Notes under the pieces: model-generated
The model's database searches: none
Told to the model about the DNA's origin: nothing
Seen by the model: the letters and a program-made list of their open reading frames with translations, nothing else
Translations under genes and position numbers: made by a program
Shown: positions 29,256-46,532 of the stretch, in pieces
Layout: each line of letters begins with the position of its first letter
Position numbering within the stretch: position 1 is the stretch's first letter
Assembly: GCA_963734545.1 (NCBI GenBank)
Contig: CAVTHO010000007.1
Coordinates: 672,001-736,000, forward strand
DNA: 64,000 nucleotides
Direction of reading: 5' to 3'
Origin: an uncultured Spirochaetota bacterium
GTDB taxonomy: Bacteria; Spirochaetota; Spirochaetia; SZUA-6; Fen-1364

Positions 29256-29956
29256 TTCTGTTCCCTCCGGCCGAAGAGGGCGGTTCCGACTCTCACAAGG
29301 GTCGCCCCTTCCTCTATGGCGATCTCGAAGTCACTCGACATGCCCATGGACAGCGTATCGAAGAACGGCAGCCCGCCGCCCGCCCGCACCTCCTCGAATA
29401 CGGAGCGGAGGGCGGCAAATGAAGAGCGAACTCTCTGCGTATCCTCGCTGAGGGGACCCACCGTCATCAATCCCCTCACCCGGAGGTGCGTCAGCTTCCC
29501 GATCCACTCCAATCCGGCAAGCAGCTCGCTGCGGGACAGAAACCCTGACTTGGTGGGCTCGCCGCTCGTATTGAGCTCCAGCAGGATGTCCACTGTCCTG
29601 CCTCGCTCTTCGCACCGGGCATGGAGGGCTTCCGCGGTCTCCCGCTTGTCAATCGACTGAACGCACGCGAACAGGCCCGAGGCCGCGCGCGCCTTGTTTC
29701 TCTGCAGGTGCCCGATGAGATGGAGCTCGAACCCGCCGGGCAGGTCGAGGTATTTCTGCTCTGCTTCCTGCACCCGGTTTTCTCCGAACAACGACAGGCC
29801 TGCCGCCCGCGCATCGAGCACGACCTGCTGGGGAAAGCCCTTTGTCACGGCCATGAGCCTGACGGCCGACGCGTCCCGGCCCGCCCTCTGCGCGGCGGCG
29901 CTGATGCGGTCCCGTACTGCCGCAACGGCGGACGTGAGAGTTCCTACCATCTCCAT
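29252..29956 (-). CDS. yggS: PLP homeostasis protein YggS/PROSC
   Basis: MAVTK, FGENRVQE, HLIGHLQRNK, LSMGMSSDF, VRVGTALFG. Confidence 0.95.
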   Translation of the reverse strand: MEMVGTLTSAVAAVRDRISAAAQRAGRDASAVRLMAVTKGFPQQVVLDARAAGLSLFGENRVQEAEQKYLDLPGGFELHLIGHLQRNKARAASGLFACVQSIDKRETAEALHARCEERGRTVDILLELNTSGEPTKSGFLSRSELLAGLEWIGKLTHLRVRGLMTVGPLSEDTQRVRSSFAALRSVFEEVRAGGGLPFFDTLSMGMSSDFEIAIEEGATLVRVGTALFGRREQK

Positions 29957-30468
29957 TGCCGCACCGGAGGATATGCCCTGCTCACCGCTGCGGCGACAAG
30001 TATTCCGAGCAGCACGCCTACGCCGCCCTGCAGGAGATTGCCCGGCACGTCACCGAGTGACGCCCCGAACCCCGCAATAAGAGACCCGCCCGCCAGGTAG
30101 CCGCCAGCCATGACTGCAATGCCGACAAGGCCGGCGGCGATGCTCAAGCCCACGTTCGCGGGCCGGGCGCGCGCAATGAGCCCTACCAGCAGTCCCTGCA
30201 GACCGTGCACGACGAGGGAGATCGGCGCCCAGATGGCAAACGGGCTCAGGAGATCGGCGAGTGCCGTTCCGATCCCCCCGGCGAACATCGCCGAAACAGG
30301 GCCGAGGGTTATGGCGGTAAACACGATCGCGACGTCCCCCAGATTGATGTACCCCCTGGCGGGAGTCGGTATCTGCACGACCCTTGTCAGCACGGTCGTG
30401 ACAGCAGCGAGAATCGCAATGGAAGCAATCCGAAATGCCGGTGACATGACCGGCCGATCATCGCTCAT
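29944..30468 (-). CDS. ECF transporter substrate-binding S component
   Basis: Very hydrophobic; IPTPARGYINLGD, GGIGTALADLL; adjacent to T and A components. Confidence 0.85.
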   Translation of the reverse strand: MSDDRPVMSPAFRIASIAILAAVTTVLTRVVQIPTPARGYINLGDVAIVFTAITLGPVSAMFAGGIGTALADLLSPFAIWAPISLVVHGLQGLLVGLIARARPANVGLSIAAGLVGIAVMAGGYLAGGSLIAGFGASLGDVPGNLLQGGVGVLLGILVAAAVSRAYPPVRQWRW

Positions 30469-30594
30469 GCAGAGCCTCCCTGTGAGAGTATAGGCGAAAA
30501 ACAGCCGTCCGAAAAGAACATGCCGCGGCATCCGGCGGCGCTGCGCGATTACGGCGCGCGAGCATACGCGACAGCTGCGCGCGAGCCGGTGCGA

Positions 30595-31372
30595 TCAGGC
30601 CTGCCAGCGTACCAGCGCCGGACTGATGAACAGGAAGCTGAGACAGAGACACACGATCAGGTCGGCAACCAGGCGCCGGCCCTTTTTCAGTTCCGCGTAT
30701 ACGGTCCGGGGATTCCGTCTTCCGAATCCCCGGCTCTCGAGAGCCATGGCGAGCACCGGTATGCCCTTGACCGCCTCGATCAGCAGGGAGGTAAGAACCG
30801 GGCAGATAGGTATCGATGATCTTCTTTCTTCCCCGGGTCGCGGGCGGACCGGCCCGCAGCCGATGCGCGTCCAGCACGTTGTGCCAGGTCGACGCAAGGG
30901 AGGGCATGGTCCGCAGGGCGACGATCACCACCAGGCAGAACGTGTAGGGAAGACCGAACCATCTCAGGCTGAGGACAAGATCGTCGAGGGAGACGGTCCT
31001 GACAACCGCAAAGAACCCGAATGTGACTCCGATAAATCGCAGGAGCAGGATCAGGGTTTCGCGCACTCCGTCGCTCGTCAGGAGAACAAGGCCGAACAGC
31101 GTGACGACATTCGTGCCCGCCCGGTGAAAGGGCGGGGTCAGAAGGCAGATGAAGACGAGGACGGGCGCCATCGCCTCGAGCGGGGGAAGAAGCTGGCGGA
31201 GTCCCAGCGCCGACGCAGTGACGATCACCAGGGCCGCCGCGAATGGCGCAAGCACCAGGGGCGGAACGGGAAGGAAGAAGCAGATGAAGAGGGGAACAAG
31301 AAGGAGAAGCTTGGCCCGGGGATCGAAACGGTGAAGAAAGCTGTGCCCGGGCCGGAAAAAATCCACGCTCAT
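30595..31372 (-). CDS. ECF transporter transmembrane T component (frameshift near 30800)
   Basis: HRFDPRAKL, AHRLRA, ALESRGF. Confidence 0.85.
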
Positions 31373-32841
31373 GAAGCGGCCTCCCGGGAAACAGAGGGTC
31401 GGAAATCGCGGCTCAGCTTCCCGGATTCCAGGACGAGAATCCTGTCGGCCAGCGACATCGCCAGGTCCATATCGTGCGTGATCAGGATGATGCCCGGCGC
31501 GCGCGGGATCAGCGCGTCGAGCAGGCGCTCGACCTCCCTGCAGGAAAGCCCCGAGTCGATCTCATCGAGGACCAGGATCTCGCGGGGCAGCAGGTAGGAG
31601 ATCGCCGCCTGCAGTCTCCTGCGGCCGCCATAGCTCATGAGCGCGGGAGGAGAGGCCGGGTCGGGCAGCGAAAAGAGCCCGACGGCTTCTTCGATTTTCT
31701 GTTCGATCTCGTCCCTGCTCATGCCCTGCCGCCGCAGGCCGAGGGCAAGCTCGTCGCGGACAGTGGGAAGGTAGATCTGGTGGTCGGGATTCTGAAAGAG
31801 ATATCCCACCCTCCCATTGAGCTCGTTCGCGGAAGCAGGGGAGAACCCCGAGCCCGAGCGCAGCGACACAACGCCGGTCTGCGGCGTCAGAAGGCCGCAG
31901 AGGATCCTTCCAAGAGTCGTCTTTCCCGATCCATTCCTTCCGAGGAGCGCGCATACCTCGCCGGCGCGCACGTCGAGAGAATCAATGGCCAATGAAAAGC
32001 TGTCCCGACCGGGGAAGCGAAAACTCACTCCTTCCACCCTGAGCTGGACCTGGGCAGACCCTCCGCGGGAGGGCCCCTTTTCCTTGCGCGGGAGGATACC
32101 TTCGCCGGACAGCGCGCGGTGGAGCTCGGGCGCATCTCCGCTGTCCGCAGATGAGACTATCCGGCCCTGCGAGAGGAGCGCGAAATGGCCGCCCCTGTCC
32201 GCCAGGAGCGGGGACCACCTCGAAGCAAGCGCAAGCACGGTCCTTCCCGTTTCAGCGAGAAGGTCCAGCGTGGCGGTTTTCCAGGCCTGATCGAGCTCGT
32301 CGAGGGACTCGTCGAGGATCCAGAGCGCGGGCCCGATCGCAAGAAGACACGCAAGGAGAAGTCTCTTTTTCTCCCCTCCCGAAAGAGTGGACGGATTTCT
32401 GTCTTTGAATGCAGAGAGACCCATTTTTCGGAGGCTCTCCTCCACCCGGTCGACAATTCGAGGCCGGGGCACTCCAAGGGATTCAAGGGCAAATGCCAGC
32501 TCAGTGTCACAACGGGTCGTGAAGATCTGCTCATCAGAATCCTGGGAGACGAGCCCGACTTTTTCCATGAGCTCGAACGGCGCGGATTTTCGCACATCCT
32601 GGCCGTCGAGAATGATCGTCCCGTCCAGCGTGCCCCCCGAGAAGCGCGGCACGAGTCCCGCCACGATCCGCGCAAAGGTGGTCTTGCCCGCGTCGGCTGC
32701 CCCGAAAAGCACGGTCACACCGCCCGTCCTGATTGTCAGCGTGAACCCGTCATGCACCGGGGCGGCTTTCTCCACGCCCATGCGGGGGTAGCGGAATGAC
32801 AGGTCCTTCACGATGAGCAGCGGAGTGTCCGGGAGGTCCAT
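31369..32841 (-). CDS. ECF-type ABC ATPase with two fused nucleotide-binding domains
   Basis: GAADAGKTT/LSGGEKKR and GRNGSGKTT/FQNPDHQI/ITHD. Confidence 0.9.
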   Translation of the reverse strand: MDLPDTPLLIVKDLSFRYPRMGVEKAAPVHDGFTLTIRTGGVTVLFGAADAGKTTFARIVAGLVPRFSGGTLDGTIILDGQDVRKSAPFELMEKVGLVSQDSDEQIFTTRCDTELAFALESLGVPRPRIVDRVEESLRKMGLSAFKDRNPSTLSGGEKKRLLLACLLAIGPALWILDESLDELDQAWKTATLDLLAETGRTVLALASRWSPLLADRGGHFALLSQGRIVSSADSGDAPELHRALSGEGILPRKEKGPSRGGSAQVQLRVEGVSFRFPGRDSFSLAIDSLDVRAGEVCALLGRNGSGKTTLGRILCGLLTPQTGVVSLRSGSGFSPASANELNGRVGYLFQNPDHQIYLPTVRDELALGLRRQGMSRDEIEQKIEEAVGLFSLPDPASPPALMSYGGRRRLQAAISYLLPREILVLDEIDSGLSCREVERLLDALIPRAPGIILITHDMDLAMSLADRILVLESGKLSRDFRPSVSREAAS

Positions 32842-33045: not shown

Positions 33046-33185
33046 TCGCGGTCGCTCCTGGCGACATTCGCGGTCGCTTCTGGCGACATTCGCGGTCGCT
33101 CCTGGCGACATTCGCGGTCGCTCCTGGCGACATTCGCGGTCGCTCCTGGCGACATGCGCGGTCGCTCCTGGCGACATTCGCGGTC
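33046..33185. repeat. Tandem array of 6 full plus 1 partial copies of the 22-bp unit TCGCGGTCGCTCCTGGCGACAT
   Basis: Read directly; only 2 substitutions across the array; each unit contains the inverted repeat GTCGC-N5-GCGAC. Confidence 0.97.
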
Positions 33186-33627
33186 ACGCGTCCAGGACGA
33201 CCTCCGCTTCCCAGCCGTCCTGCACCGCCTCCACCCGGTAGCGATAGAGACTGACCGCTTTCACGTCCGCGGCCAGCTTGTGCCTCATGGGATCGATCCG
33301 TTCTCCCCTGAGCACGGCGGACAGGGAGGCGACGGGAAGCGCGTTGCCCGCGCCTTCCGCGATCCGCACGGATTCGATTCTCAGCAGCAGGCCTTCGGTG
33401 TCCTTGGAAACGATCACCCACTGCAGGAGCTCGAAGAGCAGCATCTCGATTCCCTCGGCGGACAGCTGGATCTCCCTTTCCTCACGGGGAGTGATGGAAA
33501 AGAGATCGTAGACCATCGCGTTGACCAGCGCATCCACGGACGAATGAAACAGCTCCTCCAGCGTTTCTCCCGTTGCCGAGAACGCGACATCCGCGATTGC
33601 CCGGTCATCAAGATAGCGCCAAGGCAC
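33184..33627 (-). CDS. Archease family protein
   Basis: WRYLDD..ADVAF.A.G.TLEELF, GE.IDP..H, DVKAVS, EVVLD. Confidence 0.88.
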   Translation of the reverse strand: MPWRYLDDRAIADVAFSATGETLEELFHSSVDALVNAMVYDLFSITPREEREIQLSAEGIEMLLFELLQWVIVSKDTEGLLLRIESVRIAEGAGNALPVASLSAVLRGERIDPMRHKLAADVKAVSLYRYRVEAVQDGWEAEVVLDA

Positions 33628-33680
33628 GCCGCTCGCCCCTTGGGGAGAATATACTCAAAAAGCTTCGGCAGGTGCCTGTT

Positions 33681-34648
33681 TCAATACCGGCGATGCAGCA
33701 GCTTTTCCGTCACCCCGACCAGCGTGTCGATTGAAGGGTGGGACGGCAACCGACGAATTTCCCGCAGAGACCTTTCCGTGTACTGCTGGGCACGCAGGCG
33801 CGCCCCTTCGAACCCGCCCCTTTCCTCTATCAGGCGCGCGGCGCGGGACAGCGCGCGGCGCCCCCGGGGCCGCCGCGCCAGCGCGGCAGCCAGCTTGTCG
33901 TCATCACCGCGCAAGGCGATGATGGTCGGAAGCGTGTAGATCCCCTGCGAGATGTCGCTTCCCGTCGGCTTGCCGGTTTCCGCGCCGTGCCCTCTCGAAA
34001 TCCAGGATATCATCGATGATCTGGAAGCCCATGCCCAGGCAGTAGCCGAGTCTCCTGAATATGCTGCACACCTGGGCGGTACATCCGCTCTCGTGCGCCC
34101 CGACGTAGAAGGACAGGGAGAACAGCGCGGCGGTCTTTCCCGCGATCCTTCGAAGATACCGGCGGATGCTCGTGCTGGGCGTCATAGCGATCGGCGGACT
34201 GGCTGATCTCGCTGCCGCAGATACGGGCAACCAGCCGGGAGAGGGCCTGCGCATTGTCCACCTTTGCCAGGTCTGCAATCAGCGAAAAACACGACGCAAA
34301 GAGCCAGTCTCCGACAAGAACCGCCTTGCGCGGCCCGTGCAGGACATGCAGCGTGGCGACTCCCCGGCGGGTCGGTGCACCGTCGATGACGTCATCATGC
34401 ACGAGTGTCGCCATGTGCAGCATCTCGACGGCCGCGCCTATGCGGATCATCCGCGCCGCATCCGGGGTACCGAAGCGCGAGGACAGGAGGACAAACGCGG
34501 GACGCAGCATCTTTCCGCTCGCATCCAGAAGCTGACGGACCGCGCCATGCACCTCCGTGTCGTCCGTGGCGGCGCGCGAGAGGATCGTCTCCCGCACGCA
34601 GTCGAGCTCACGCGCCAGCTCCGGATGCCCGTCCCAGAAGGGCCTCAT
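33681..34648 (-). CDS. Polyprenyl diphosphate synthase (HepT/DmkB-like; frameshifts near 34170 and 33995)
   Basis: GKMLRP, LVHDDVID, GKTAALF, FQIIDDILD, GKPTGSDI..GIYTLP. Confidence 0.92.
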
Positions 34649-34651
34649 TTC

Positions 34652-36711
34652 TTATTTCGTTGGTTCATCCGCGTAGAACCGGGTCTTTCTGGCGAACCGG
34701 GTGCCGTTCCACCATCTCTTGAAAAACGGCACAACCCAGGTGTCGAGCCCGAACGCCCTGCCTGCCCCGCCCATCATGAGGATAGCGGCGAAGAAGAACC
34801 AGAGCTGATTCCACGCGAACATGCCGGAGAGCGTGAAGATCAGGCACATCCCGATCGAGGCCACCGCCGCCCACCAGGTGAACAGACCGCCGAAGAGCGC
34901 GAGCCCGATGAGCAGCTCGGCGAAGACAATCATCACCTGAAACCAGGAATACGGCAGATAGGCGAAGATCCCGTCCATGAAGGTCTGCCGGAACCAGGTC
35001 ACGAGGCCCGAGCCGGGATCCAGGATGGTCTTTGTCGTGTCGAGCCAGGGCCCGTGCACCGCCGGGGCGGCCGCGCCAGCCGCACCGGAGGCCGCGGACG
35101 CTGCGGAGGTGACATCCACCGCAGCGGCGGCGCCGGCCGCGGCGCCGGCCGCCGCAGCCCCTGATTGCGCGGCAGAGGCGGCCGTGGTGGCGTCCGGGAT
35201 TTTCAGCCCTGCCTGGATGACACCCGGGGAAAACATCCAGCCTGTCTGGCTCTTGCCGGTGGAAAAATCGAGCCATCCCTGCGTGATCTTGTTCGTCGAC
35301 TCCACGACCCACATGAATCCGAGCCATAGTCTCAGGAGCAGGGGCCAGTAGCCGCGCACCTTGTACGAGGCCAGCGCTCCCACGAAAGACCGCCCGTTCT
35401 TTACGTCGAGGAATTCGTGCTTGACGTACTCCCACACCTGATTGACGCCGGCCGTGCCGAAGAGATGCACCACGTTGATCAGGTGTTTCACCGCAATGGC
35501 AAAGATTCCCGTCAGCGAGATGCCCATGACATGGGCCACGCCGGAGAATGCTCCCAGGGAAACCATGATCCCGTGGTAGCGCGAGCGGAAAGCCTTCATT
35601 TGTCCGTTGGTGATGTCCGCGATGATATTGTGCGCCGCTGTCTCCGCGGTCTGCACGGCGGCCTCCACGATCTGGGGATTGACCCTCTTGCCTTCCAGGT
35701 GCCACGCGACGTCCCCGACGATGTAGACGTTCGGATAGTCGACGGACTGCATGTATTCGTTGGCAAGCAGGCGGCCCCTTTTGCCCTCGATATAGCGGTC
35801 CTTGGAAAAAGTGCAGTTCTTCACGCCGCAGGTGCCCTGAGTCGTGGCGAACCGGCACATTCGGTTGCCGCATTTTCCCTTTGTGAGCGCCAGGTTTGCC
35901 GCAAACTCGCAGCCCTGGATTCCGCAGGTCCAGATGAATGTCCGGGTGGCGATGGACCTGTTCCCGGCCAGGAGCACTCCATTCTGGTCCGCGCCGATGA
36001 TGGGAGAGCGCAGCATGATCTGCACCCCCCGTTTTTCCAGTGAGCGCTTGTGCTTTCTGCTGCAGCTTCTGGGGAAGATTCGGAATGATCGCGTCCAGTG
36101 CCTCCACGACGATGATGCGGACTTCCTTTTCATCGATGTGGTGCGCGCGGCACAGCACGCGCCGCTGGTCCTTGAGCTCACCCGCGAGCTCGATACCGGT
36201 AAAGCCCGCTCCGGCTATGACGAAAGTCAGGAGCTCCGCCCGCTTCGCCGGGTCCTTCTCCGCGGCCGCCCGGCGGAAAACATCCTCGATATGGCGGCGA
36301 ATCTCCAGCGCGTCCTCGAATGACCAGATGGTGAAGGCGTGTTCCTTGATGCCCGGGATGCCGTAGTACTCCGGCTCTCCTCCCACCCCGAGCACGATGT
36401 AGTCAAACGCATACTGCCCGGTGTCGGAAATGGCCTGACGCGCCTCGAAATCTATCGTGCGTATCCTGTCAGTCACAAGGGAGACCGGTCGGGCGCCGAA
36501 GATCTTTTTGAAGCTGATCTGAACGGAAGCGGGGTCCACACGGCCGCCCGCCACTTCGTGCAGCTCGGTCATGAGCGTGTGGTGCCGCGTTCTTGTCTAT
36601 CAGCGTGATCTCGATGTCGCGACGCATCCCGATCTTGCGCGCGAGCACTTTGGCGGCTTCGACTCCGCCGTACCCTCCGCCCAGAACGAGGATGCGGGTA
36701 ATGTCTGGCAT
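34652..36711 (-). CDS. Type II NADH dehydrogenase fused to a C-terminal DoxX-like membrane domain (frameshifts near 36585 and 36040)
   Basis: GGGYGG, LHEVAGG, GAGFTGIELAGE, VGDVA, PQIVEAAVQTA, then LRLWLGFMW...AELLIGLALFGGLFT...AGRAFGLD. Confidence 0.88.
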
Positions 36712-36734
36712 GTTTGTCCTCTTAGGTTCACCCC

Positions 36735-36762
36735 ATCCTACTAAGGCGAGGGGAATTGTCAA
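36735..36762 (-). promoter_or_regulatory. sigma70-type promoter for ndh2 and the polyprenyl synthase
   Basis: TTGACA-16 nt-TAGGAT on the minus strand; AAGAGG RBS. Confidence 0.55.
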
Positions 36763-36834
36763 TACTGAGGGGTGTGCGCCCGACAGAAAGGCCGCAATTG
36801 CGCCGACCGGCAGCGGCGTGCTATAAAACGTTCC

Positions 36835-37872
36835 ATGGCTCGGTCCTTGCGGTGGCCGCGGCGCGCGGCCGCTGCCGCCCTTCTCATCCTGGCCGGCGTC
36901 TTTCCCACGGCAGCCGAACCACTCAAGCGTTCCGTCCTCAATCTCCTGGGAACCACTTCGGAGATCACGCTGTATGCCGGCGGCACGGAGTCCGCCTTCG
37001 ATGCCGCATTTGCCCGGATCGCCGAGATAGACTCGGCCATGACGATCAACAAGCCCGACAGCGAGGTGATCCGGGTGAACAAGGCAGCCGGTCTGCATCC
37101 GGTCAAGGTGGCGCCCGATGTGTTTTTTGTCATCAAGCGCGGTCTTGAGTTCTCCCTCCTGGGGAACGGCGCCTTCGATATCACGGTTGCCCCCCTCGTG
37201 GCGCTCTGGGGAATCGGCACGGCGCACGCGCGCGTTCCCCGCCCGGATGAGATCAAGGAAACACTCGCCCTCGTCGGCAGCAGAAATCTCGAGCTTCAGG
37301 AGGCCGGCTCCACCGTGTTCCTGAAGAGGCCGGGCATGGGAATCGACCTCGGTTCCATGGCCAAGGGATATGCCGCGGACGAGGTGGCGCGTGTCCTGAG
37401 GGAGCACGGAGTCACGAGTGCCTTGATCAACCTCGGCGGCAATATTCTCACAATGGGACAGAAGCCGGACGGCACCCCGTGGCGCATCGGCATCCAGAAT
37501 CCCGAGGAGCCGAGAGGCACCCCGGTCGGCGTCGTCGAGATCCCGCGCGGCTCGGTCACCACCGCCGGCACCTACGAGCGGTATTTCACTTCGGGGGGAA
37601 AGAGATACTTCCATATCCTCGATGCAAGGACCGGATACCCTGCGTGGAACGGGCTTGCGGCCGTTTCAATAGTTGCCGGTGATTCCATGAGCGCGGACGG
37701 ATATGACACGGTTGTTTTCACCCAGGGGCTGAACGCCGGGCGCGCGCTCGTCGAGGCTGCGCATGGCGCAATCGAAGCGGTCTTCATTACGGAGAAGCGC
37801 GGGATCTATGTCACTCCGGCGCTGCGCCCGAGATTCAAGCTCAGCGATTCACGGTTCACGATGATCAACTAG
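36835..37872 (+). CDS. apbE: FAD:protein FMN transferase (ApbE/Ftp/FmnB family)
   Basis: LGT, FDITVAPLVALWG, IDLGSMAKGYAAD, NLGGN, TAGTYERYF, HILDARTGYP, ADGYDT; N-terminal signal peptide. Confidence 0.95.
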   Translation: MARSLRWPRRAAAAALLILAGVFPTAAEPLKRSVLNLLGTTSEITLYAGGTESAFDAAFARIAEIDSAMTINKPDSEVIRVNKAAGLHPVKVAPDVFFVIKRGLEFSLLGNGAFDITVAPLVALWGIGTAHARVPRPDEIKETLALVGSRNLELQEAGSTVFLKRPGMGIDLGSMAKGYAADEVARVLREHGVTSALINLGGNILTMGQKPDGTPWRIGIQNPEEPRGTPVGVVEIPRGSVTTAGTYERYFTSGGKRYFHILDARTGYPAWNGLAAVSIVAGDSMSADGYDTVVFTQGLNAGRALVEAAHGAIEAVFITEKRGIYVTPALRPRFKLSDSRFTMIN

Positions 37873-37893
37873 CTTCCGTCTTTCGCGCCTCCC

Positions 37894-38832
37894 CTACCTC
37901 CCGGGCAGGAGCAGCGAGATGCAGAAGAGAACGCCGAACACGAGATGGTGGAGCATCACGAGCGGGATGACCGGCTTCCTCTTTTCCGGCGCCCGGGGCA
38001 TGAATAAAAACGGGGGCACGGTGAGGGGCAGCGCGAGGTAGATCAGCCAGGGAGGAGGATAGAGGCCTCCCAGCAGGAGCAGGACGGGACTCGCATACGC
38101 GCACCCCAGAAGCACGCAATATACGCCTATGGCGCGCCGGTAGCCGATACGCACGGTGAGTGTCCGCAGAGCGTATCGACTGTCTGATTCGAAATCCCGA
38201 AGCTCATTTGCCAGGAGGATGAGGGATACGAGGAAGCTCACGGGAATCGAAACCAGCACGACCTTCCAGGAGAAGGCCCCCGAGACGGCGGAGTAGGCGC
38301 CCGCGACCATGCACACGCCCATCAGGAAGAAGACGATCACCACGGCGAGCCCCCGCCGTTTATAGTTGAGAGGCTCCCCGGTGTAGAAGAATCCGCCGGC
38401 GAATCCCACGAGCCCCAGGATGATGAGAGCCCAGCCGCTCCGCCATGCCAGGAACAATCCGAGAAGTCCGGCAAAACCGAAAAACGCGAGTCCGACAAGG
38501 AAGATGAGCCACTCCAGCAGCTCGCGATCGGCCTTTGTGAATCCGAGATGCGCGACCTTGTCCCCTACCCTTTTCTGACGAAACTCGAAGAAATCATTGA
38601 CGAGATTCACACCGGCCTGCAGCGCGAGCCCGTCTGCCATCACGCAGATCGCGTTCAGGAGATCGCCGCGGCCGTCGCGGTAGGCGAGCAGCACTCCCAG
38701 CGAGCACGAGAATGCGGCGATCACCAGCGAGGGGAAGCGCAGGGCAATGAAGCCCGCGCGCCACGCGCGCAGGTCGAAAGCGAGGCGCAGCGAGTCCCGT
38801 ACGAGGGGGCGCAGGAGGGCGATGAGCTTCAT
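37894..38832 (-). CDS. UbiA-family prenyltransferase, MenA/DmkA-like
   Basis: QAGVNLVNDFFE, YTGEPLNYKRRGL, NELRDFESD, TLTVRIG; multi-TM. Confidence 0.88.
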   Translation of the reverse strand: MKLIALLRPLVRDSLRLAFDLRAWRAGFIALRFPSLVIAAFSCSLGVLLAYRDGRGDLLNAICVMADGLALQAGVNLVNDFFEFRQKRVGDKVAHLGFTKADRELLEWLIFLVGLAFFGFAGLLGLFLAWRSGWALIILGLVGFAGGFFYTGEPLNYKRRGLAVVIVFFLMGVCMVAGAYSAVSGAFSWKVVLVSIPVSFLVSLILLANELRDFESDSRYALRTLTVRIGYRRAIGVYCVLLGCAYASPVLLLLGGLYPPPWLIYLALPLTVPPFLFMPRAPEKRKPVIPLVMLHHLVFGVLFCISLLLPGR

Positions 38833-38842
38833 CCGCGCCCGC

Positions 38843-39508
38843 TCACATGCCCCAGAAGGGCCGGGGACGCACCAGCGTGTACACGAGAGGTGCCCAATTG
38901 ACACAGACAACCACGGCCAGCGCGAGAATTCCTTTGAGCGTGGAGCGGACCGGGGCGCGAGGGTCCCGCGAGACCGACCCACCGGCGGCCTGGATTTCAA
39001 TGAGAATCCGATCGATGCTGCCGATGATGTCTTTTCGATCCATCTCCCGCCTTTGGCTCATGATCGATTCGAAATAGTAGAATGACCTGCCGAGGAGCCC
39101 GCCCATTCGGCCGGGAAGCCGGAGATCGGACCTCAGGGAGAATTGGGACAAGGCGATGAGCCCGATCATTGCCGTTGCCTTGGAAACCCCTGTTTTCAAC
39201 GCCCCCTCGGTAAGCGGAAGCCCGAGCACATCCACAAGCACTTTTCCCGTGGGAATTGCCAGGTTGAATAGAACTATGCCGGCAGCAATGACCAGGAACT
39301 GCAATGGCCTTACCCGTCGGCCGGTGAGCGCATTCAGGCTGGCGACAAAAACGATCAGCAGCCCCCGCAGCACCAGGTCCTGCTGGAGCAGGAAAGCGGG
39401 AAAAAGCAATGCTCCCGCGGCGAGAAGGGCTCCCGGAGTGACATGTGCCTGCAGGAAGACGCCGAGGCTCCGGTCCTTCACGTGATTTCTCTCGCTGACG
39501 CCAGCCAT
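38843..39508 (-). CDS. Membrane protein, distantly EcfT/FmnA-like
   Basis: 4-5 TM segments, PTGKVL...LTEGALKTG motif; coupled to the Gx transporter gene. Confidence 0.5.
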   Translation of the reverse strand: MAGVSERNHVKDRSLGVFLQAHVTPGALLAAGALLFPAFLLQQDLVLRGLLIVFVASLNALTGRRVRPLQFLVIAAGIVLFNLAIPTGKVLVDVLGLPLTEGALKTGVSKATAMIGLIALSQFSLRSDLRLPGRMGGLLGRSFYYFESIMSQRREMDRKDIIGSIDRILIEIQAAGGSVSRDPRAPVRSTLKGILALAVVVCVNWAPLVYTLVRPRPFWGM

Positions 39509-40011
39509 CGGGACCGCGACGCGAACTTTTCGGCAAAGGCGCCCAGGACAGCGGCGGTCACAGTGCCGAGGGCGATGAAAGGAGGCGCGATCAGCCAGGC
39601 TCCCTCCCCGAATATCAAGGCGCGCGCCAGCCAGAGCTGCATCGTGTTGCTGAAAAGCGCGCCGAATACTCCCACACCAATCAGCGAGATGTGTCTGCCG
39701 CACACCCGCCGGAAAAACAGCATGGAAAGCGCGCTTGCAAGCGAACCGACCGCGGAAAAGAGAAAGACGTAGGACAGGAGTGTCCCTCCCAGGAGGGCCT
39801 GTCCGAGGATCTTCAACATCACCACGAGAAGGACGAGGGGCACGGGAAGCAGATCGAGGCTGATGAGGACCGGGAGGTTGGCAATTCCCACGCGGAGAAA
39901 GGGAACCGGCTTGGGGATCATGTACTCGATTGCCGAGAGAAACAGGCACATTGCGCCAAGGAGCGCGACCAGGTCGAGTCTCCTAGTAAGAGATGTCGTC
40001 GATTTTCTCAC
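39478..40011 (-). CDS. Gx transporter / heptaprenyl diphosphate synthase component I family (EetB-like)
   Basis: LSAIEYMIPKPVPFLRVGIAN, SLIGVGVFGALFSNTMQL. Confidence 0.88.
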   Translation of the reverse strand: MRKSTTSLTRRLDLVALLGAMCLFLSAIEYMIPKPVPFLRVGIANLPVLISLDLLPVPLVLLVVMLKILGQALLGGTLLSYVFLFSAVGSLASALSMLFFRRVCGRHISLIGVGVFGALFSNTMQLWLARALIFGEGAWLIAPPFIALGTVTAAVLGAFAEKFASRSRWLASAREIT

Positions 40012-40348
40012 CGCTCGTTCCTCGTACCCGCACGAAAACCCGATTCGGCAGGCAGGCGATCCATTGCCCCGGCCTCGAGATGGCGGGCATGTGGACACAC
40101 AGCTTGTCGGGGCAGGGAGAGTCCACGACCGAGGCGCTCCCGTCCTGTATCGCGACGATCGTCCCTCCCAGGGGGCCCATGACCGTCTCTCTTCTGTCCT
40201 GGTCCAGCGGGTAAATCCACCGGGCACCGGACGCCTCGATCACCACCTCCCCGGCGCCGGCCCTCCCCGCGTACGCGTATAGAGAGAATCCTCCGATGGC
40301 AAGGAGAGAAATCAAGACGGCGAGAAAATCCACTGCTCTGAGCTTCAT
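39983..40348 (-). CDS. NusG domain II-containing exported protein (EetA-like)
   Basis: N-terminal TM helix, GPLG, SPCPDKLCV, IACLPNRV. Confidence 0.9.
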   Translation of the reverse strand: MKLRAVDFLAVLISLLAIGGFSLYAYAGRAGAGEVVIEASGARWIYPLDQDRRETVMGPLGGTIVAIQDGSASVVDSPCPDKLCVHMPAISRPGQWIACLPNRVFVRVRGTSGEKIDDISY

Positions 40349-40563: not shown

Positions 40564-41682
40564 TCATGAAGAGGTCCCGCGGATTTTCCATGCCGGGAGG
40601 TGACCGTGCGTCTGTTCGTTCCATTCGCTCGCCGGCAGCTTCTCGTGCACGCCCGTGATCACGCACCCTCCCGGGCGGAGCGCGCGTCTGAATCCTGCGA
40701 TTGTGATTTTCTGGGCGCGGGCGTCGAGGTACGAGAGCCGGTCGCGATATAAGATCAGGTCGAAGGATTCCGGGACGGGAACAAAGGCATCCGAACAGAC
40801 GAGAACGATCCTTTCGCGGACCGCGTCGTTTCCAGAGAACCGCCCGTCCTTTTCCTCCAGCACTCCGGACCTTTTCAGGTATTCCGGCACGTCTGAATGG
40901 GGCAGCGAGCAGTCCTGGGCTTCCACGATCGCCTCCAGCCTGTCAACGGCCCAGATTTTCGCACGCAGCCTGGGCCGGTCCATTGCGAGGATGCATGCGA
41001 GTGAGAGGGCATCAAGCCCTCGGCCGCATTCAGGGTTCCAGACCGAGAACTGCCGAGCGGATGAGCCGGGCATCAGCGGTTTCAGCCCCGCCCGGAGGCT
41101 TTCATTCCAGAGCGTATCGATGCAGGGCGAGCCGAAACCTGCAAGAAACTCCGCTGCACGCTCCCGGGTGGCAGGGAGTGCGCGGCCCCATTTCGCGCTC
41201 CGATACCGTCTCGTGACCCACGCGATGTTCACATCTGACACCGTGTAGGACGCGTGCTTCCCCAGGGCGTCACGAAGGTCGGTCCATGCGTCTGCGGCGC
41301 GGGGAACGGGGTGGTCTCCAAAGAAAGTGCCGGGATCCAGCATGTGTCGATCAGGCTTCGAGTCCGCGAAAGGCCCTGATATGCTGTCGACTGCGATGGC
41401 AACATTCGCTCCCGCTGTCTGAACAACCACTGCCGTGCCGGGAGGTGTCGCCTCTCCGCGGCGGGGGAGCATGCCAAGACGGGGGAGCGGATCGAGAACC
41501 GGCAGCGGCGCTCCCTTCCAGGTGTGCAATCCGAGAACATCTGCGGAGGCTCCGTTCAAGCGTGCGATTCGTTCGATGGCGAATGTCCCCGCCACGTTCG
41601 CGGATTCGATTCCGAATTCGACGCCGGCAATGGAAACCGTATAGATCAAACCTTCCGGTCCGTGCACACCTTGCGCGGGCAT
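40564..41682 (-). CDS. CheW-CheR-like fusion protein (start uncertain)
   Basis: CheW domain (FGIES, LGLHTWKGAPLPVLD, AIAVDSI) plus degenerate CheR domain (VWNPECGRGLDALSLA, FDLILYRDRLSY, ALRPGG). Confidence 0.72.
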   Translation of the reverse strand: MPAQGVHGPEGLIYTVSIAGVEFGIESANVAGTFAIERIARLNGASADVLGLHTWKGAPLPVLDPLPRLGMLPRRGEATPPGTAVVVQTAGANVAIAVDSISGPFADSKPDRHMLDPGTFFGDHPVPRAADAWTDLRDALGKHASYTVSDVNIAWVTRRYRSAKWGRALPATRERAAEFLAGFGSPCIDTLWNESLRAGLKPLMPGSSARQFSVWNPECGRGLDALSLACILAMDRPRLRAKIWAVDRLEAIVEAQDCSLPHSDVPEYLKRSGVLEEKDGRFSGNDAVRERIVLVCSDAFVPVPESFDLILYRDRLSYLDARAQKITIAGFRRALRPGGCVITGVHEKLPASEWNEQTHGHLPAWKIRGTSS

Positions 41683-41704
41683 TGCATGGTCCGGCACGGG
41701 GGTC

Positions 41705-43373
41705 TCAGCTTCTCCGCTTCCGGGCAGTGGTCGCCGCAGCGATGTACGAAGCGACATCGATAATGAGCGCAACCTCCCCGTCCGCCCGGGCAGCCGCCGC
41801 GGCGATGCCGGGCGTCCGGGCCCCCGCGTAGTCGATGGCCGCGGGAGCAAGTCTCCCTTCCCCCTCCAGCTTGTCGAAAACAAGGACCGCATTCAGACCA
41901 CCCGCGCTCACCACAACGCCCGCGTGAGGGACATCGCCGCCGGGCGCCGCTATGACCTGCAGCTTTTCGCTTCCTGAAATGTACTCCTGCCCGGGCGGGG
42001 AGCCGGGATGCACTTCACAACTTCATCGACTGGGATCGCATAAACAGAGTCTCCGGCCCTGCCCAGGATGAAGCTTCCATCGATTCTCCCCTTCCCCCGC
42101 GGGCGGGGAAGCTCCAGTGAGAAGACGGTTTTCTCTCCGTTCTCGGATTCTATCTGGAAGCCGATGCCTTTGCGTGCGAGCCTCGGGCGTATGCCCGAAA
42201 GAGCCTCTTCGAGCTTCTGTTTCGATGAGACACGCCCCAGGTGGCGGAGACTCAGCCGTACCTTTTCTCCCTCGGCGTCAGCCTGCAGGTGAAGCCGGCT
42301 GACAGGGGCTCGAGTCTTTTTTTTCAGGCTTTGCGGTCGTCTTGTTTCAGCATCCAGCGAGGCGCGCACGCACCGATTTATCGTGGTGGCTGCCGTGTCC
42401 GCAAGCGCGGCGTCTATCTCGAGATCCTGCAGGTCAACGGCTGTCTCTACCGGGAATGACAGCTTCACCGCATGCCTTCGCACGAGCCGGGGAAACCGGC
42501 GAACAGTGCGGCGAGCCGGACGCTTCCGATCCGCGCAGCAGCCTCCCGGGCAGCCGCTGAGGCTCGCTCCCCTTTCTTCGCCGCCTCCCGCAGCCTGGCC
42601 GTGAAACCCGAGAATGATTCCTCGAACTCCGATGCGATCCTGCCAAAAGCGGCGACACGCGCGGACAGCTCGCCCGCAATGCTCGTGGTCGGCTGGCCGC
42701 GCGCCGCAGCGGCGAGCCCGCCGGGGATGGCCTCGAGAAGCTCACGAACACCGCGCTCCTGCTGCGCGGCCAGGGTGCGAAGCCCCGAAAGAAGGGCGAG
42801 GGATTCTTCCGCGGTCCGGGCAGCCAATGCGGCGGCCGCTCCGGATTCACCCGCTGCCGCCTGCGCCGCACGCAGGCGGCGCGCATCGACTCTCGTGAGC
42901 ACGAGGCCGGCCTGTCCCCCGGACCCTTCCGCGTCCTGCAGGCGCGCCGGCTGCGCGAGCAGGGTTTCCAGGGCGCGCGCCGCGGATTCACACGCGCCCG
43001 AGTCCGGGGCGCCCGCGACGTGCGCCTCCAGGAATTCAAGCGCGCCCCGGGCGGCGAAGTCGAGCATCGACCCCACCTCTGCACCCGCGGGTATCCGGCC
43101 TGCGCGAACCGCCCGCACGACATCCTGGACAAGCCGGGCGATCCGCACGACTCCCGGCATCACCGCCTGATCGAGCTCCCCCTTCAGGGAATGGGCCGCG
43201 CGGTATGCCTCGTCGAGCACGGCGCCCGGGTCCCGTGTCTTCCGCAGCGAACCGGCGCTTTCCGCCAGGAACGTGAGCAGACGGCGGGCCTCGTCCAGGG
43301 AAGCCTCTTCCATCGGGCCTGTCCGCGAATCAGTGCCATCGCCGGGAGGTGCGTCCTCGCGCGGGAAATCCAT
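41705..43373 (-). CDS. CheA-like protein: HPt, degenerate kinase core and CheW domain (frameshifts near 42490 and 42000)
   Basis: YRAAHSLKG; FPRLVR after frame repair; IESENGEKTVFSLELP; YAIPVDEV; DGEVALIIDV. Confidence 0.7.
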
Positions 43374-45460: not shown

Positions 45461-46487
45461 CTACTGCGCCGGCTTCGTTGTCGCGTCCATCTTCTGCTGC
45501 TCGAGGAAGCGGAGGACCTGGATGTTCCCCAGGCGCTTGAGCTCGGCCAGACGCCGCGCCTCGTTGCGCTGCTGCAGGATGCCCCAGATCGCTTCGTCGT
45601 TGATGTCCCGCTCGGTGTCGATGATGGCCTTGTCGTAGGTGATCTTGATGTCCTGGACGTAGGTGACGAAGTCACCGCCTTCCTGCGCCGCGTCTCGATA
45701 CACGATGATTCCGACGATCTTCAGGTACGGCATGCCCTTCGGGTAGAGAGGGAACTTGCGCAGCTCGCGGTTCCTGACGTCCACGATGTAGTTGGGGTTG
45801 TCCCAGGTCAGGGTGCGCCAGCCGTCGAATGCCAGGTAGTCCATGAACATCGTCTGCTCGTTGCCGTCCTGGTCCGCGACGACAACACCGAGACCGTTGG
45901 GGAAGTTCGCGCCGTACACGGTGATGGAAAGGCTCTTCAGGACGCCGACGTTCTTCACGACGCCGTAGCCGTTGAACTTTTCACCCTTTCCCTTGTCCGC
46001 GTCCGCCACCACCATCTTGCCGGACGTGCAAGGAGTCCTTGTCCGCGTAGGCGGGGATGTCGAACGGCGGCTGGATCATGGCCCAGGAGTTGAACGGTTC
46101 CGTGGGGAAATGGATACGCACGCCCAGGATCTTCTTGCTGGCCATGTCCTTTCCGCCGAACGGCTTTGCCGTTGCGTTGGTCATGGCTTCCTTCGTCATG
46201 GTCACGCTCTGGTTGGCGACCGACCGGGCGGAGGATGCAAGCACCACCTGCCAGTTGTTCAGGGCAAGGGAGGACTTCATCGCGGCCTTGTCCTGTTCGG
46301 AGACCGAGGCTCCCGCGACATTGCTGTAGTCCACCAGCGTTGCCGCGTTCTCCGTCGGGGTCTTGTTTGCACCCATGACCTGATCTGCGCCCAGCTTGGT
46401 GAAATCGATGAGCACGGATTGGTCGGCAAAAAGTGCTGTTCCGCCGAGAAGAAGCCCAACGACAACAAAAACGAACAGCCGTTTCAT
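45461..46487 (-). CDS. flaA: Flagellar filament outer layer (sheath) protein FlaA (frameshift near 46020)
   Basis: Signal peptide, VLIDFTKL, NWQVVLASSAR, LGVRIHFP, PPFDIPAY, GYGVVKNVG, FDGWRTLTWDNPNY, YDKA. Confidence 0.92.
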
Positions 46488-46532
46488 GCATTGCTCCTTT
46501 CGCTGCTAAATCCTTTCGGAGTTACATTCACA

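Follow-up and report, generated by a model that had tools for sequence, protein, structure and literature searches.

The window, a stretch of 64,000 nucleotides from an uncultured Spirochaetota bacterium of the Fen-1364 lineage (assembly GCA_963734545.1, contig CAVTHO010000007.1, positions 672,001 to 736,000), contains a 6.7-kb block (33681-40348) in which profile searches and, for the fmnA-like gene, fold prediction placed seven gene families of flavin-based extracellular electron transfer (FLEET; EET for extracellular electron transfer). The FLEET locus of Listeria monocytogenes, as Light et al. are said to have described it in 2018, consists of dmkA, dmkB, ndh2, fmnB, fmnA, eetA, eetB and pplA. 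Counterparts of all eight families, those of fmnA and pplA being candidates, are present in the spirochaete genome, seven of them in the block and the eighth as an unlinked PplA-like gene. Judging from gene content, family membership, predicted fold, gene order and co-occurrence across genomes, we favour, with some reservation, the reading that in a double-membraned spirochaete they would make up a functional chain of the FLEET type, with a two-flavin protein of the periplasm at its end. A sequence-only reading of the same DNA had described the seven families as one contiguous set, which they are, and had proposed a quinone-dependent chain exporting electrons from NADH to the periplasm. The kind of system seems to have been rightly recognised, the missing carrier not.

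The ndh2-like gene (34652-36711, minus strand, in three frames) encodes an NDH-2 with a DoxX-like C-terminal membrane domain, for which DoxX was matched at E 0.0054 in the orthologue of the related locus L002 and at E 8.7e-5 in the clostridial locus L063. The same architecture is found in Firmicute EET loci and in the EET-flagged rows that Rivera-Lugo et al. 2023 give in their Data Set S1 (PMC9973259). In the relevant part of Meheust et al. (PMC8238504), EET is defined by K03885 with a transmembrane helix inside a flavinylation cluster, and the window has an NDH-2 with such an added membrane domain and an adjacent ApbE gene. The ndh2 and ApbE genes are flanked by a dmkB-like gene for a long-chain polyprenyl diphosphate synthase (33681-34648, minus strand, three frames; TIGR02748 profile) and a dmkA-like gene for a MenA-type prenyltransferase of the UbiA family (37894-38832, minus strand; PF01040 E 5.1e-26; NF004751 130 bits, cut-off 264), a position that suggests dedicated DmkA and DmkB. 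Because the genome has two more MenA-like genes at other places, and also a split MenG-like gene adjoining another polyprenyl synthase gene, the quinone genes of the cluster look like extra, dedicated copies. Listeria has separate housekeeping and EET quinone genes, and the split of quinone genes in this genome is similar. In the outer loop of the C-terminal domain of NDH-2, the flavinylation-type site [S/T]-G-[A/V/S]-[S/T] was looked for; the window's Ala-rich loop has no such site but two copies of S-G-A-A, and the site occurs, sometimes repeated, in 16 of 68 full-length orthologues, where the low complexity of the loop makes chance matches likely. Several orthologues (L007, L013, L016 and others) carry two to four copies of A-A-T-S-G-A-S in this loop, and A-E-A-T-S-G-A-S is common to five Treponemataceae/Rectinema-type loci. 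A 36-nt insertion at 35137-35148, also in the loop, was seen in two of the public sequencing runs described below (X1 and X3).

The flavin genes of the block agree with the same kind of system. The fmnB-like gene (36835-37872, plus strand; PF02424 E 3.2e-90) encodes an ApbE FAD:protein FMN transferase with an N-terminal hydrophobic signal or anchor sequence and no lipobox cysteine, and its sequence points to the extracytosolic type. Its best solved relative is Listeria FmnB (7esa; PMC8906456), with 262 bits vs 165 for the next one. The second ApbE of the genome is equally FmnB-like, and this likeness does not single out the cluster copy. EetA and EetB are present as a pair: the eetA-like gene (39983-40348, minus strand) encodes an N-terminal membrane anchor followed by a NusG_II domain (PF07009, E 8.4e-23), and the eetB-like gene (39478-40011, minus strand) encodes a 'Gx transporter' protein (Hpre_diP_synt_I/PF07456, E 2.5e-34) that has a single copy in the genome. 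According to the passages of Rivera-Lugo et al. on this system (PMC9973259), Listeria EetB belongs to PF07456, is an FAD-binding subunit resembling the S component of energy-coupling factor (ECF) transporters, and exports FAD with the ECF-T-like FmnA and shared EcfA/A' ATPases. FmnB, an ApbE, flavinylates PplA at two sites in Listeria, and eetB co-localises with eetA (NusG_II) in 3,328 genomes (PMC9973259, same passages). The full ECF module that the sequence-only reading had placed nearby, at 29944-32841, was matched in all its parts on the minus strand: a RibU-type S component (29944-30531; PF07155, ECF-ribofla_trS, E 1.8e-31), ecfT of the CbiQ family (30610-31372, two frames; PF02361 E 9.1e-15, covering profile positions 2-170 only) and a fused ecfA-A' ATPase of 490 aa with two ABC_tran domains (31369-32841; TIGR04520 E 6e-72, below cut-off). 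No second EcfT match was found in the genome at E 1e-4. Because of the arrangement reported for Listeria in those passages (PMC9973259), it is likely by analogy that this ATPase powers both the riboflavin importer and the EetB exporter.

A candidate carrier was found outside the window. No FMN_bind gene is present in the window itself, in agreement with the statement of the sequence-only reading that PplA is missing from it, and a genome-wide search gave two such genes, both on contig C5. One of them, P0001 (G000:C5:91158-92039), encodes a PplA-like protein with two FMN_bind domains and a cleavable signal peptide without the cysteine of a lipobox, each domain ending in a D-A-I-S-G-A-S site. 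It is 40% identical to the FMN_bind protein of the Firmicute EET locus L077 and, over the best segments, 33-34% identical to the gene directly upstream of ndh2 in the clostridial loci L063 and L074. Orthologues tie it to the cluster families by position. In genome G094, a PplA-like gene with a lipobox is followed by the MenA-like gene and then, on the other strand, by the polyprenyl synthase and NDH-2. In G225, the order on one strand is FMN_bind, PplA-like, NusG_II, PF07456 and the fmnA-like gene, adjoining a gene for an FMN_bind and FAD_binding_2 reductase. By gene order, neighbourhood across the phylum ties all eight families together. The different terminal flavin carrier that had been postulated is not supported by a genome that encodes a secreted PplA-like protein, and P0001 is also a candidate substrate of ApbE, which argues against the idea, named as a way to refute the system, that the substrates are only RnfG and RnfD encoded elsewhere. 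Searches restricted to gene neighbourhoods would wrongly score PplA as missing here.

Some further observations concern the surroundings of these FMN_bind genes. The MFS (major facilitator superfamily) transporter, AAT-like and GH77 neighbours of P0001 were rejected as parts of the system, since four other loci with an orthologue had none of them beside it. P0002 (G000:C5:554598-555239; L083:7599-8240), the other FMN_bind protein, is membrane-bound and has its FMN_bind domain, with an S-G-A-T site, at the C-terminus. Its gene is directly upstream of, and overlaps, a HAMP histidine kinase gene, which is followed by a sigma-54 response regulator. P0002 may act in the periplasm as a flavinylated sensor of redox state, or it may be an RnfG that has been displaced. 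The reductase of G225 (L104 136-2523, minus strand) has 795 aa and is of the fumarate/urocanate-reductase type, a candidate periplasmic terminal reductase in that genome, and near the same operon lies a gene for a 1005-aa protein with a Chlamydia-PMP repeat (L104 5671-8688, plus strand).

The fmnA-like membrane protein is the part of the block that family models do not recognise. Its gene is located at 38843-39481 with a GTG start or at 38843-39508 with an ATG start (minus strand), and the protein gave no Pfam or NCBIfam match, including none to PF02361 at E 0.01. Compared by hhalign with an alignment of seven EcfT proteins from related loci, that is, with the lineage's own EcfT, it gave no significant profile-profile match (probability 1.5%, E 0.033). 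Its AlphaFold (AF2) model, with a pLDDT of 77.7, gives a different picture. The top 10 Foldseek matches are all ECF-T/CbiQ (best E 4.6e-3), and VIA-align superposed the model on 8bms_C with Z 13.8 and a root-mean-square deviation of 3.7 over 200 residues. The top 11 chains in VIA-align are all ECF-T/CbiQ, with Z from 13.8 down to 8.7, and the next chain has Z 5.1. Among the ECF T components, 8bms chain C, 5d3m chain D and 4huq chain T align with the model over about 200 residues within this range, although such components have about 260 residues and the fmnA-like protein, without a Pfam CbiQ match, only about 212. The name 'EcfT-like' used in the sequence-only reading is thus borne out by the predicted fold and not by the sequence. 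A database search gave 112 homologues, mostly of about 212 residues, and the few with a source name are spirochaetal. PF07456 is in the same chain in seven of the 112, one of which has NusG_II too. Because of the ECF-T fold and these fusions, the gene reads as that of a diverged FmnA analogue, with the fold taken from a predicted model. Complex prediction for EetB with this protein gave weak support, with a score of 0.54 vs 0.00 for the best of three controls, a partner pLDDT of at least 68 and at least 94% of contacts shared between runs. Of 157 solved complexes 116 reach the mark used, as do 2 of 215 mismatched pairs, and passing scores of 0.60 or less, as here, come from only 18 of the 157 solved complexes and from both passing mismatches. 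The pass may also reflect likeness to solved ECF S-T complexes. The locus nevertheless names a candidate diverged ECF-T partner of the EetB flavin exporter that has been overlooked by sequence models.

Conservation of the block was surveyed in a sample of 301 Spirochaetota genomes and in related loci. EetB was found in 144 of the 301 genomes and the long NDH-2 in 11, with two further genomes having a short NDH-2 only. The PplA-like protein is encoded in eight genomes, seven of which are among the 11 with the long NDH-2. The polyprenyl synthase gene directly follows that of NDH-2 in 64 of 65 non-Firmicute loci, the exception ending at a contig edge, and this gene pair is also listed for the cultured Rectinema subterraneum (L058). 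In 17 loci, ndh2 is preceded by a MenA-like gene. The same genes in the same order are present in five related loci of spirochaetes (L006, L008, L011, L018 and L060), and six clostridial loci (L063, L065, L067, L070, L074 and L077) have NDH-2, NusG_II, PF07456 and polyprenyl synthase in a row, the order NusG_II then PF07456 being common to these five and six. Because the same genes recur in order in spirochaete and clostridial loci, the clustering is, as judged by gene order, not due to chance. The five spirochaete loci carry three extra genes between the MenA-like and ApbE genes (at 3690-6110 in L006 and 4632-6187 in L011) that are not in the window. They encode an ABC transporter of the NitT/TauT type, made up of a binding protein (NMT1/THI5-type), an ATPase and a permease, which may serve to import the quinone precursor.

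The genome also gives a metabolic setting for the cluster. In the 89%-complete assembly, the best matches to MenB and MenD were far below the cut-offs (68.6 vs 342.7 bits and 69.7 vs 244.2 bits, respectively), and neither MqnA nor lumazine synthase (RibH) was found, the latter being found in one of six genomes of the same genus. Since these four are not found, it seems that the cell probably scavenges DHNA (1,4-dihydroxy-2-naphthoic acid) as well as riboflavin. A locus for Rnf (G000:C7:363000-366700; L100:5018-8696) encodes RnfC, RnfD, a split RnfE and RnfA; the space between RnfD and RnfE is too small for RnfG, and the flanks show no RnfB.

Three of these genes are split in the assembly, and it has to be considered whether the system is still whole. 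The polyprenyl synthase matches TIGR02748 positions 11-156, 157-219 and 220-319 in three consecutive frames, and tblastn with the intact L002 orthologues (a 702-aa NDH-2, a 321-aa synthase and EcfT) placed NDH-2 in three frames and EcfT in two. The breaks coincide with extra single bases near 34175 and 33989 in dmkB and near 36583 and 36047-36050 in ndh2, and that of ecfT is near 30840. With four single-base breaks within 3 kb, all in two key genes, and a further break in ecfT, the frameshifts might be real and the strain might be losing the system, which would then be a decaying relic; we consider this very unlikely. Logan contigs of four public wetland runs (X1-X4), 90-99% identical to the window and possibly from sister strains, were aligned to 33600-37900, a stretch that leaves the ecfT break outside, and at all four places they have exactly one base fewer: at 33989 and 34175 in X1 and X2, at 36047 in X1, at 36050 in X4, at 36583 in X1-X4 and at 36584 in X1. 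The orthologues with 87-91% identity have unbroken reading frames. Elsewhere, too, the assembly has many split genes, including hardly dispensable ones, namely FlaA in the window, cytochrome bd subunit I (C8), the Sdh/Frd flavoprotein (C1) and RnfE (C7), and a GroEL-ApbE read-through frame is present as well. Such a pattern, together with the 89% completeness, fits consensus errors. Because the run contigs lack the extra bases and split genes are common in the assembly, the four breaks in ndh2 and dmkB are most likely assembly insertions rather than decay, as far as can be judged from aligned sequences. The frame breaks of this assembly should hence not be read as gene decay, with an independent check that covers only those four. 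Another origin of the block, by recent transfer from Firmicutes or as a binning artefact, is hardly credible. Firmicutes are where the system was first described, and identity to the clostridial proteins is 30-45%, but the cluster has a G+C of 0.61-0.64 throughout, equal to its flanks and the rest of the window, and the 1.03-Mb contig that carries it also encodes FlaA and a CheW-CheR fusion. In a midpoint-rooted NDH-2 tree of 68 rows, from which 10 of 78 loci with truncated genes were omitted, a branch with 100% SH-aLRT support has 12 Firmicute rows on one side and, on the other, 56 rows of which nearly all bear the label Spirochaetota. The window's own lineage, with 15 rows, forms one group, and the non-Firmicute rows group broadly by taxon. 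Because the tree separates Firmicute and non-Firmicute rows, recent transfer is unlikely.

A more serious alternative, improbable in our view but far from negligible, is that the cluster is mainly housekeeping. NDH-2, the MenA-like protein and the polyprenyl synthase would make and reduce the naphthoquinones on which cytochrome bd, Sdh/Frd and further quinol-consuming enzymes draw, whereas ApbE, EetA/EetB and the ECF-T-fold protein would provide a general periplasmic flavinylation service with Rnf among its clients, and adjacency to ndh2 would be uninformative on electron export. Several observations suit this explanation and at the same time weigh against a FLEET-type chain. The NDH-2 of the cluster is the only one in the genome, and quinol sinks are present as two cytochrome bd loci and an Sdh/Frd flavoprotein with its Fe-S subunit. 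The nearest relatives, G301 (locus L001, NDH-2 91% identical), G302 (L002, 87% identical) and G303, keep MenA, NDH-2 and polyprenyl synthase, and PF07456 was not found anywhere in their assemblies, whose completeness, like that of G304, is not stated; all three have one ApbE only, of the other type, and G301 and G302 retain the PplA-like gene. Conversely, G304 has the cluster and no PplA-like match, so that the parts do not co-vary cleanly. The flavin-export module is, by gene content, variable among close relatives, and the cluster, whose lack of conservation in relatives the sequence-only reading had named as a refutation, is kept in some relatives, its eetA/eetB/ApbE part not being found in the two nearest. 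The Rnf locus would offer a client, and EetB is much more widespread in the survey than the long NDH-2, the two not being adjacent in 10 of the 11 genomes with the latter. Other points count against the FLEET-type chain on their own account. The sole NCBIfam match of P0001 is the PplA model NF041941 at 29.6 bits vs a cut-off of 325, and the protein has no lipobox in this genome. The genome-wide FMN_bind search gave no terminal reductase carrying this domain, and the run contigs are not certainly of the same strain, so real frameshifts here keep a small probability. To our knowledge, there is no known route for the electrons across the outer membrane. Against the housekeeping explanation stand the paralogous quinone genes elsewhere, beside which the cluster copies look dedicated, the EET-type architecture of NDH-2, as in Firmicute EET loci, and the position of PplA-like genes next to ndh2, dmkA and dmkB in G094 and to eetA and eetB in G225. 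The two explanations are also not exclusive, as one NDH-2 may feed both branches.

In the FLEET-type chain that we favour, Ndh2, the NDH-2 with its DoxX-like membrane domain, would oxidise NADH and reduce a demethylmenaquinone-like naphthoquinone, which the MenA-like prenyltransferase and polyprenyl synthase of the cluster would make from scavenged DHNA. The quinol would hand its electrons to the secreted periplasmic two-FMN PplA-like protein encoded on the other contig. ApbE/FmnB would attach the FMN groups, using FAD exported by EetB and the ECF-T-fold protein, and this export would be driven by the neighbouring ECF ATPase. The same ECF module, with its RibU-type S component, would import the riboflavin that the cell apparently cannot make. 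Candidate acceptors would be soluble Fe(III) chelates, humic quinones or free flavins that pass through the outer membrane, or else a reductase in the periplasm.

Compared with the Listeria system, the spirochaete shares the apparent riboflavin auxotrophy combined with a RibU-type ECF importer, but it has two membranes, its pplA-like gene is unlinked and without a lipobox, and its putative ECF-T partner is too diverged for sequence models. In addition, its ApbE gene is on the opposite strand, between dmkA and ndh2, and in its genome there is no second NDH-2 and neither a DHNA pathway nor a flavinylated FrdA-type reductase was found. In the clostridial EET loci, NDH-2::DoxX, NusG_II, PF07456 and polyprenyl synthase are consecutive, and upstream of them lies a PplA-like gene or ApbE in divergent orientation; the PplA-like proteins are 33-40% identical to P0001 over the best segments and carry lipoboxes. 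Unlike in the window, eetA and eetB are placed between ndh2 and dmkB there, and these NDH-2 form a separate clade.

The sequence-only reading was right that the family set matches that of Listeria, but its remark that the set was described in Gram-positive bacteria does not take into account that a published supplement already labels a Spirochaetota cluster 'EET'. EET clusters have been defined across 31,910 genomes, according to the part of Meheust et al. 2021 that deals with them (PMC8238504). Data Set S1 of Rivera-Lugo et al. (PMC9973259), which lists eetB neighbourhoods, has at least 542 mentions of 'Spirochaetota'. One of its entries, GCA_003559765.1 (Spirochaetota), has a polyprenyl synthase, a 644-aa NDH-2 (Pyr_redox_2 + DoxX + DoxX) and a lipoprotein ApbE labelled 'EET', and another, PMDT01000410.1 of the family Fen-1364, has the NMT1, ABC and UbiA genes of an eetB neighbourhood (PMC9973259). 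The latter record shares its whole-genome shotgun prefix with locus L024, a relative of the window. The Spirochaetota clusters of the data set are table rows only, with the ECF-T-fold partner left without annotation, and its neighbourhoods of +/-5 genes are too narrow to show an unlinked PplA-like gene. Among the main-text passages of PMC9973259 on this system, none was found that discusses spirochaetes, and a full-text literature search (including PMC8042283 and PMC13599477), which did not cover subscription journals, gave no discussion of the system in spirochaetes in the texts it reached. The kind of system is therefore known and already tabulated for spirochaetes, and what is new here is another member; of interest in its own right are a cryptic partner of the ECF-T type, a soluble PplA-like protein whose gene is unlinked, and what looks like a double auxotrophy.

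The layout of the block adds some detail. The eetA, eetB, fmnA-like and MenA-like genes overlap or abut. The likely start of the eetB-like gene is GTG at 40011, preceded by GAGGA; a GTG start of the fmnA-like gene at 39481 would overlap the eetB stop as GTGA, the alternative being ATG at 39508; and the MenA-like gene starts 10 nt past the fmnA-like stop. The ApbE gene on the plus strand converges on the MenA-like gene and diverges from ndh2, which starts with a Shine-Dalgarno sequence and ATG at 36711, and the polyprenyl synthase gene starts 3 nt past the ndh2 stop. An archease gene lies between the dmkB-like and ECF ATPase genes, and the minus-strand run from 40348 down to 29252 ends with a YggS-like gene. 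Promoter-like sites upstream of eetA (40527-40498) and ndh2 (36762-36735) have positions that fit operon starts, but the scan total is not above chance (2 sites vs 1.5 expected) and the positions carry no weight. A 22-nt tandem repeat (6.4 copies, 96% matches) occupies 33046-33185 between the ECF ATPase and archease genes. Directly upstream of the cluster are the CheW-CheR fusion gene (40564-41892, minus strand) and then an Hpt-domain gene, which belong to chemotaxis and not to the system. The window also encodes FlaA, the sheath protein of periplasmic flagella, and because of this a two-membraned spirochaete host fits. The spirochaete-like host of the sequence-only reading is in line with this and with the non-Firmicute relatives, nearly all labelled spirochaetes and a few with other or no phylum labels. 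The FlaA gene is split into two overlapping frames (45464-46505, minus strand; profile positions 3-102 and 102-229), likely by a single-base assembly error.

Experimental understanding of flavin-based EET is confined to Firmicutes, and the full set in spirochaetes raises the question of what role such a chain plays inside a periplasm. One may tentatively go further, to a possibility that we find attractive though on the doubtful side, namely that the wetland spirochaetes of this lineage, as fermenters, dispose of electrons from NADH by passing them to chelated Fe(III) or humic quinones via a soluble periplasmic two-flavin protein, which would be loaded through a previously unrecognised, highly diverged ECF-T partner of EetB, with the quinone and flavins coming wholly from scavenged DHNA and riboflavin. 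If this were true, FLEET would serve two-membraned bacteria of such soils, peat and fen, as a functioning electron sink akin to respiration. The set in spirochaetes also raises the question whether iron or humics can take up electrons from fermenters that are abundant in peat and fen soils.

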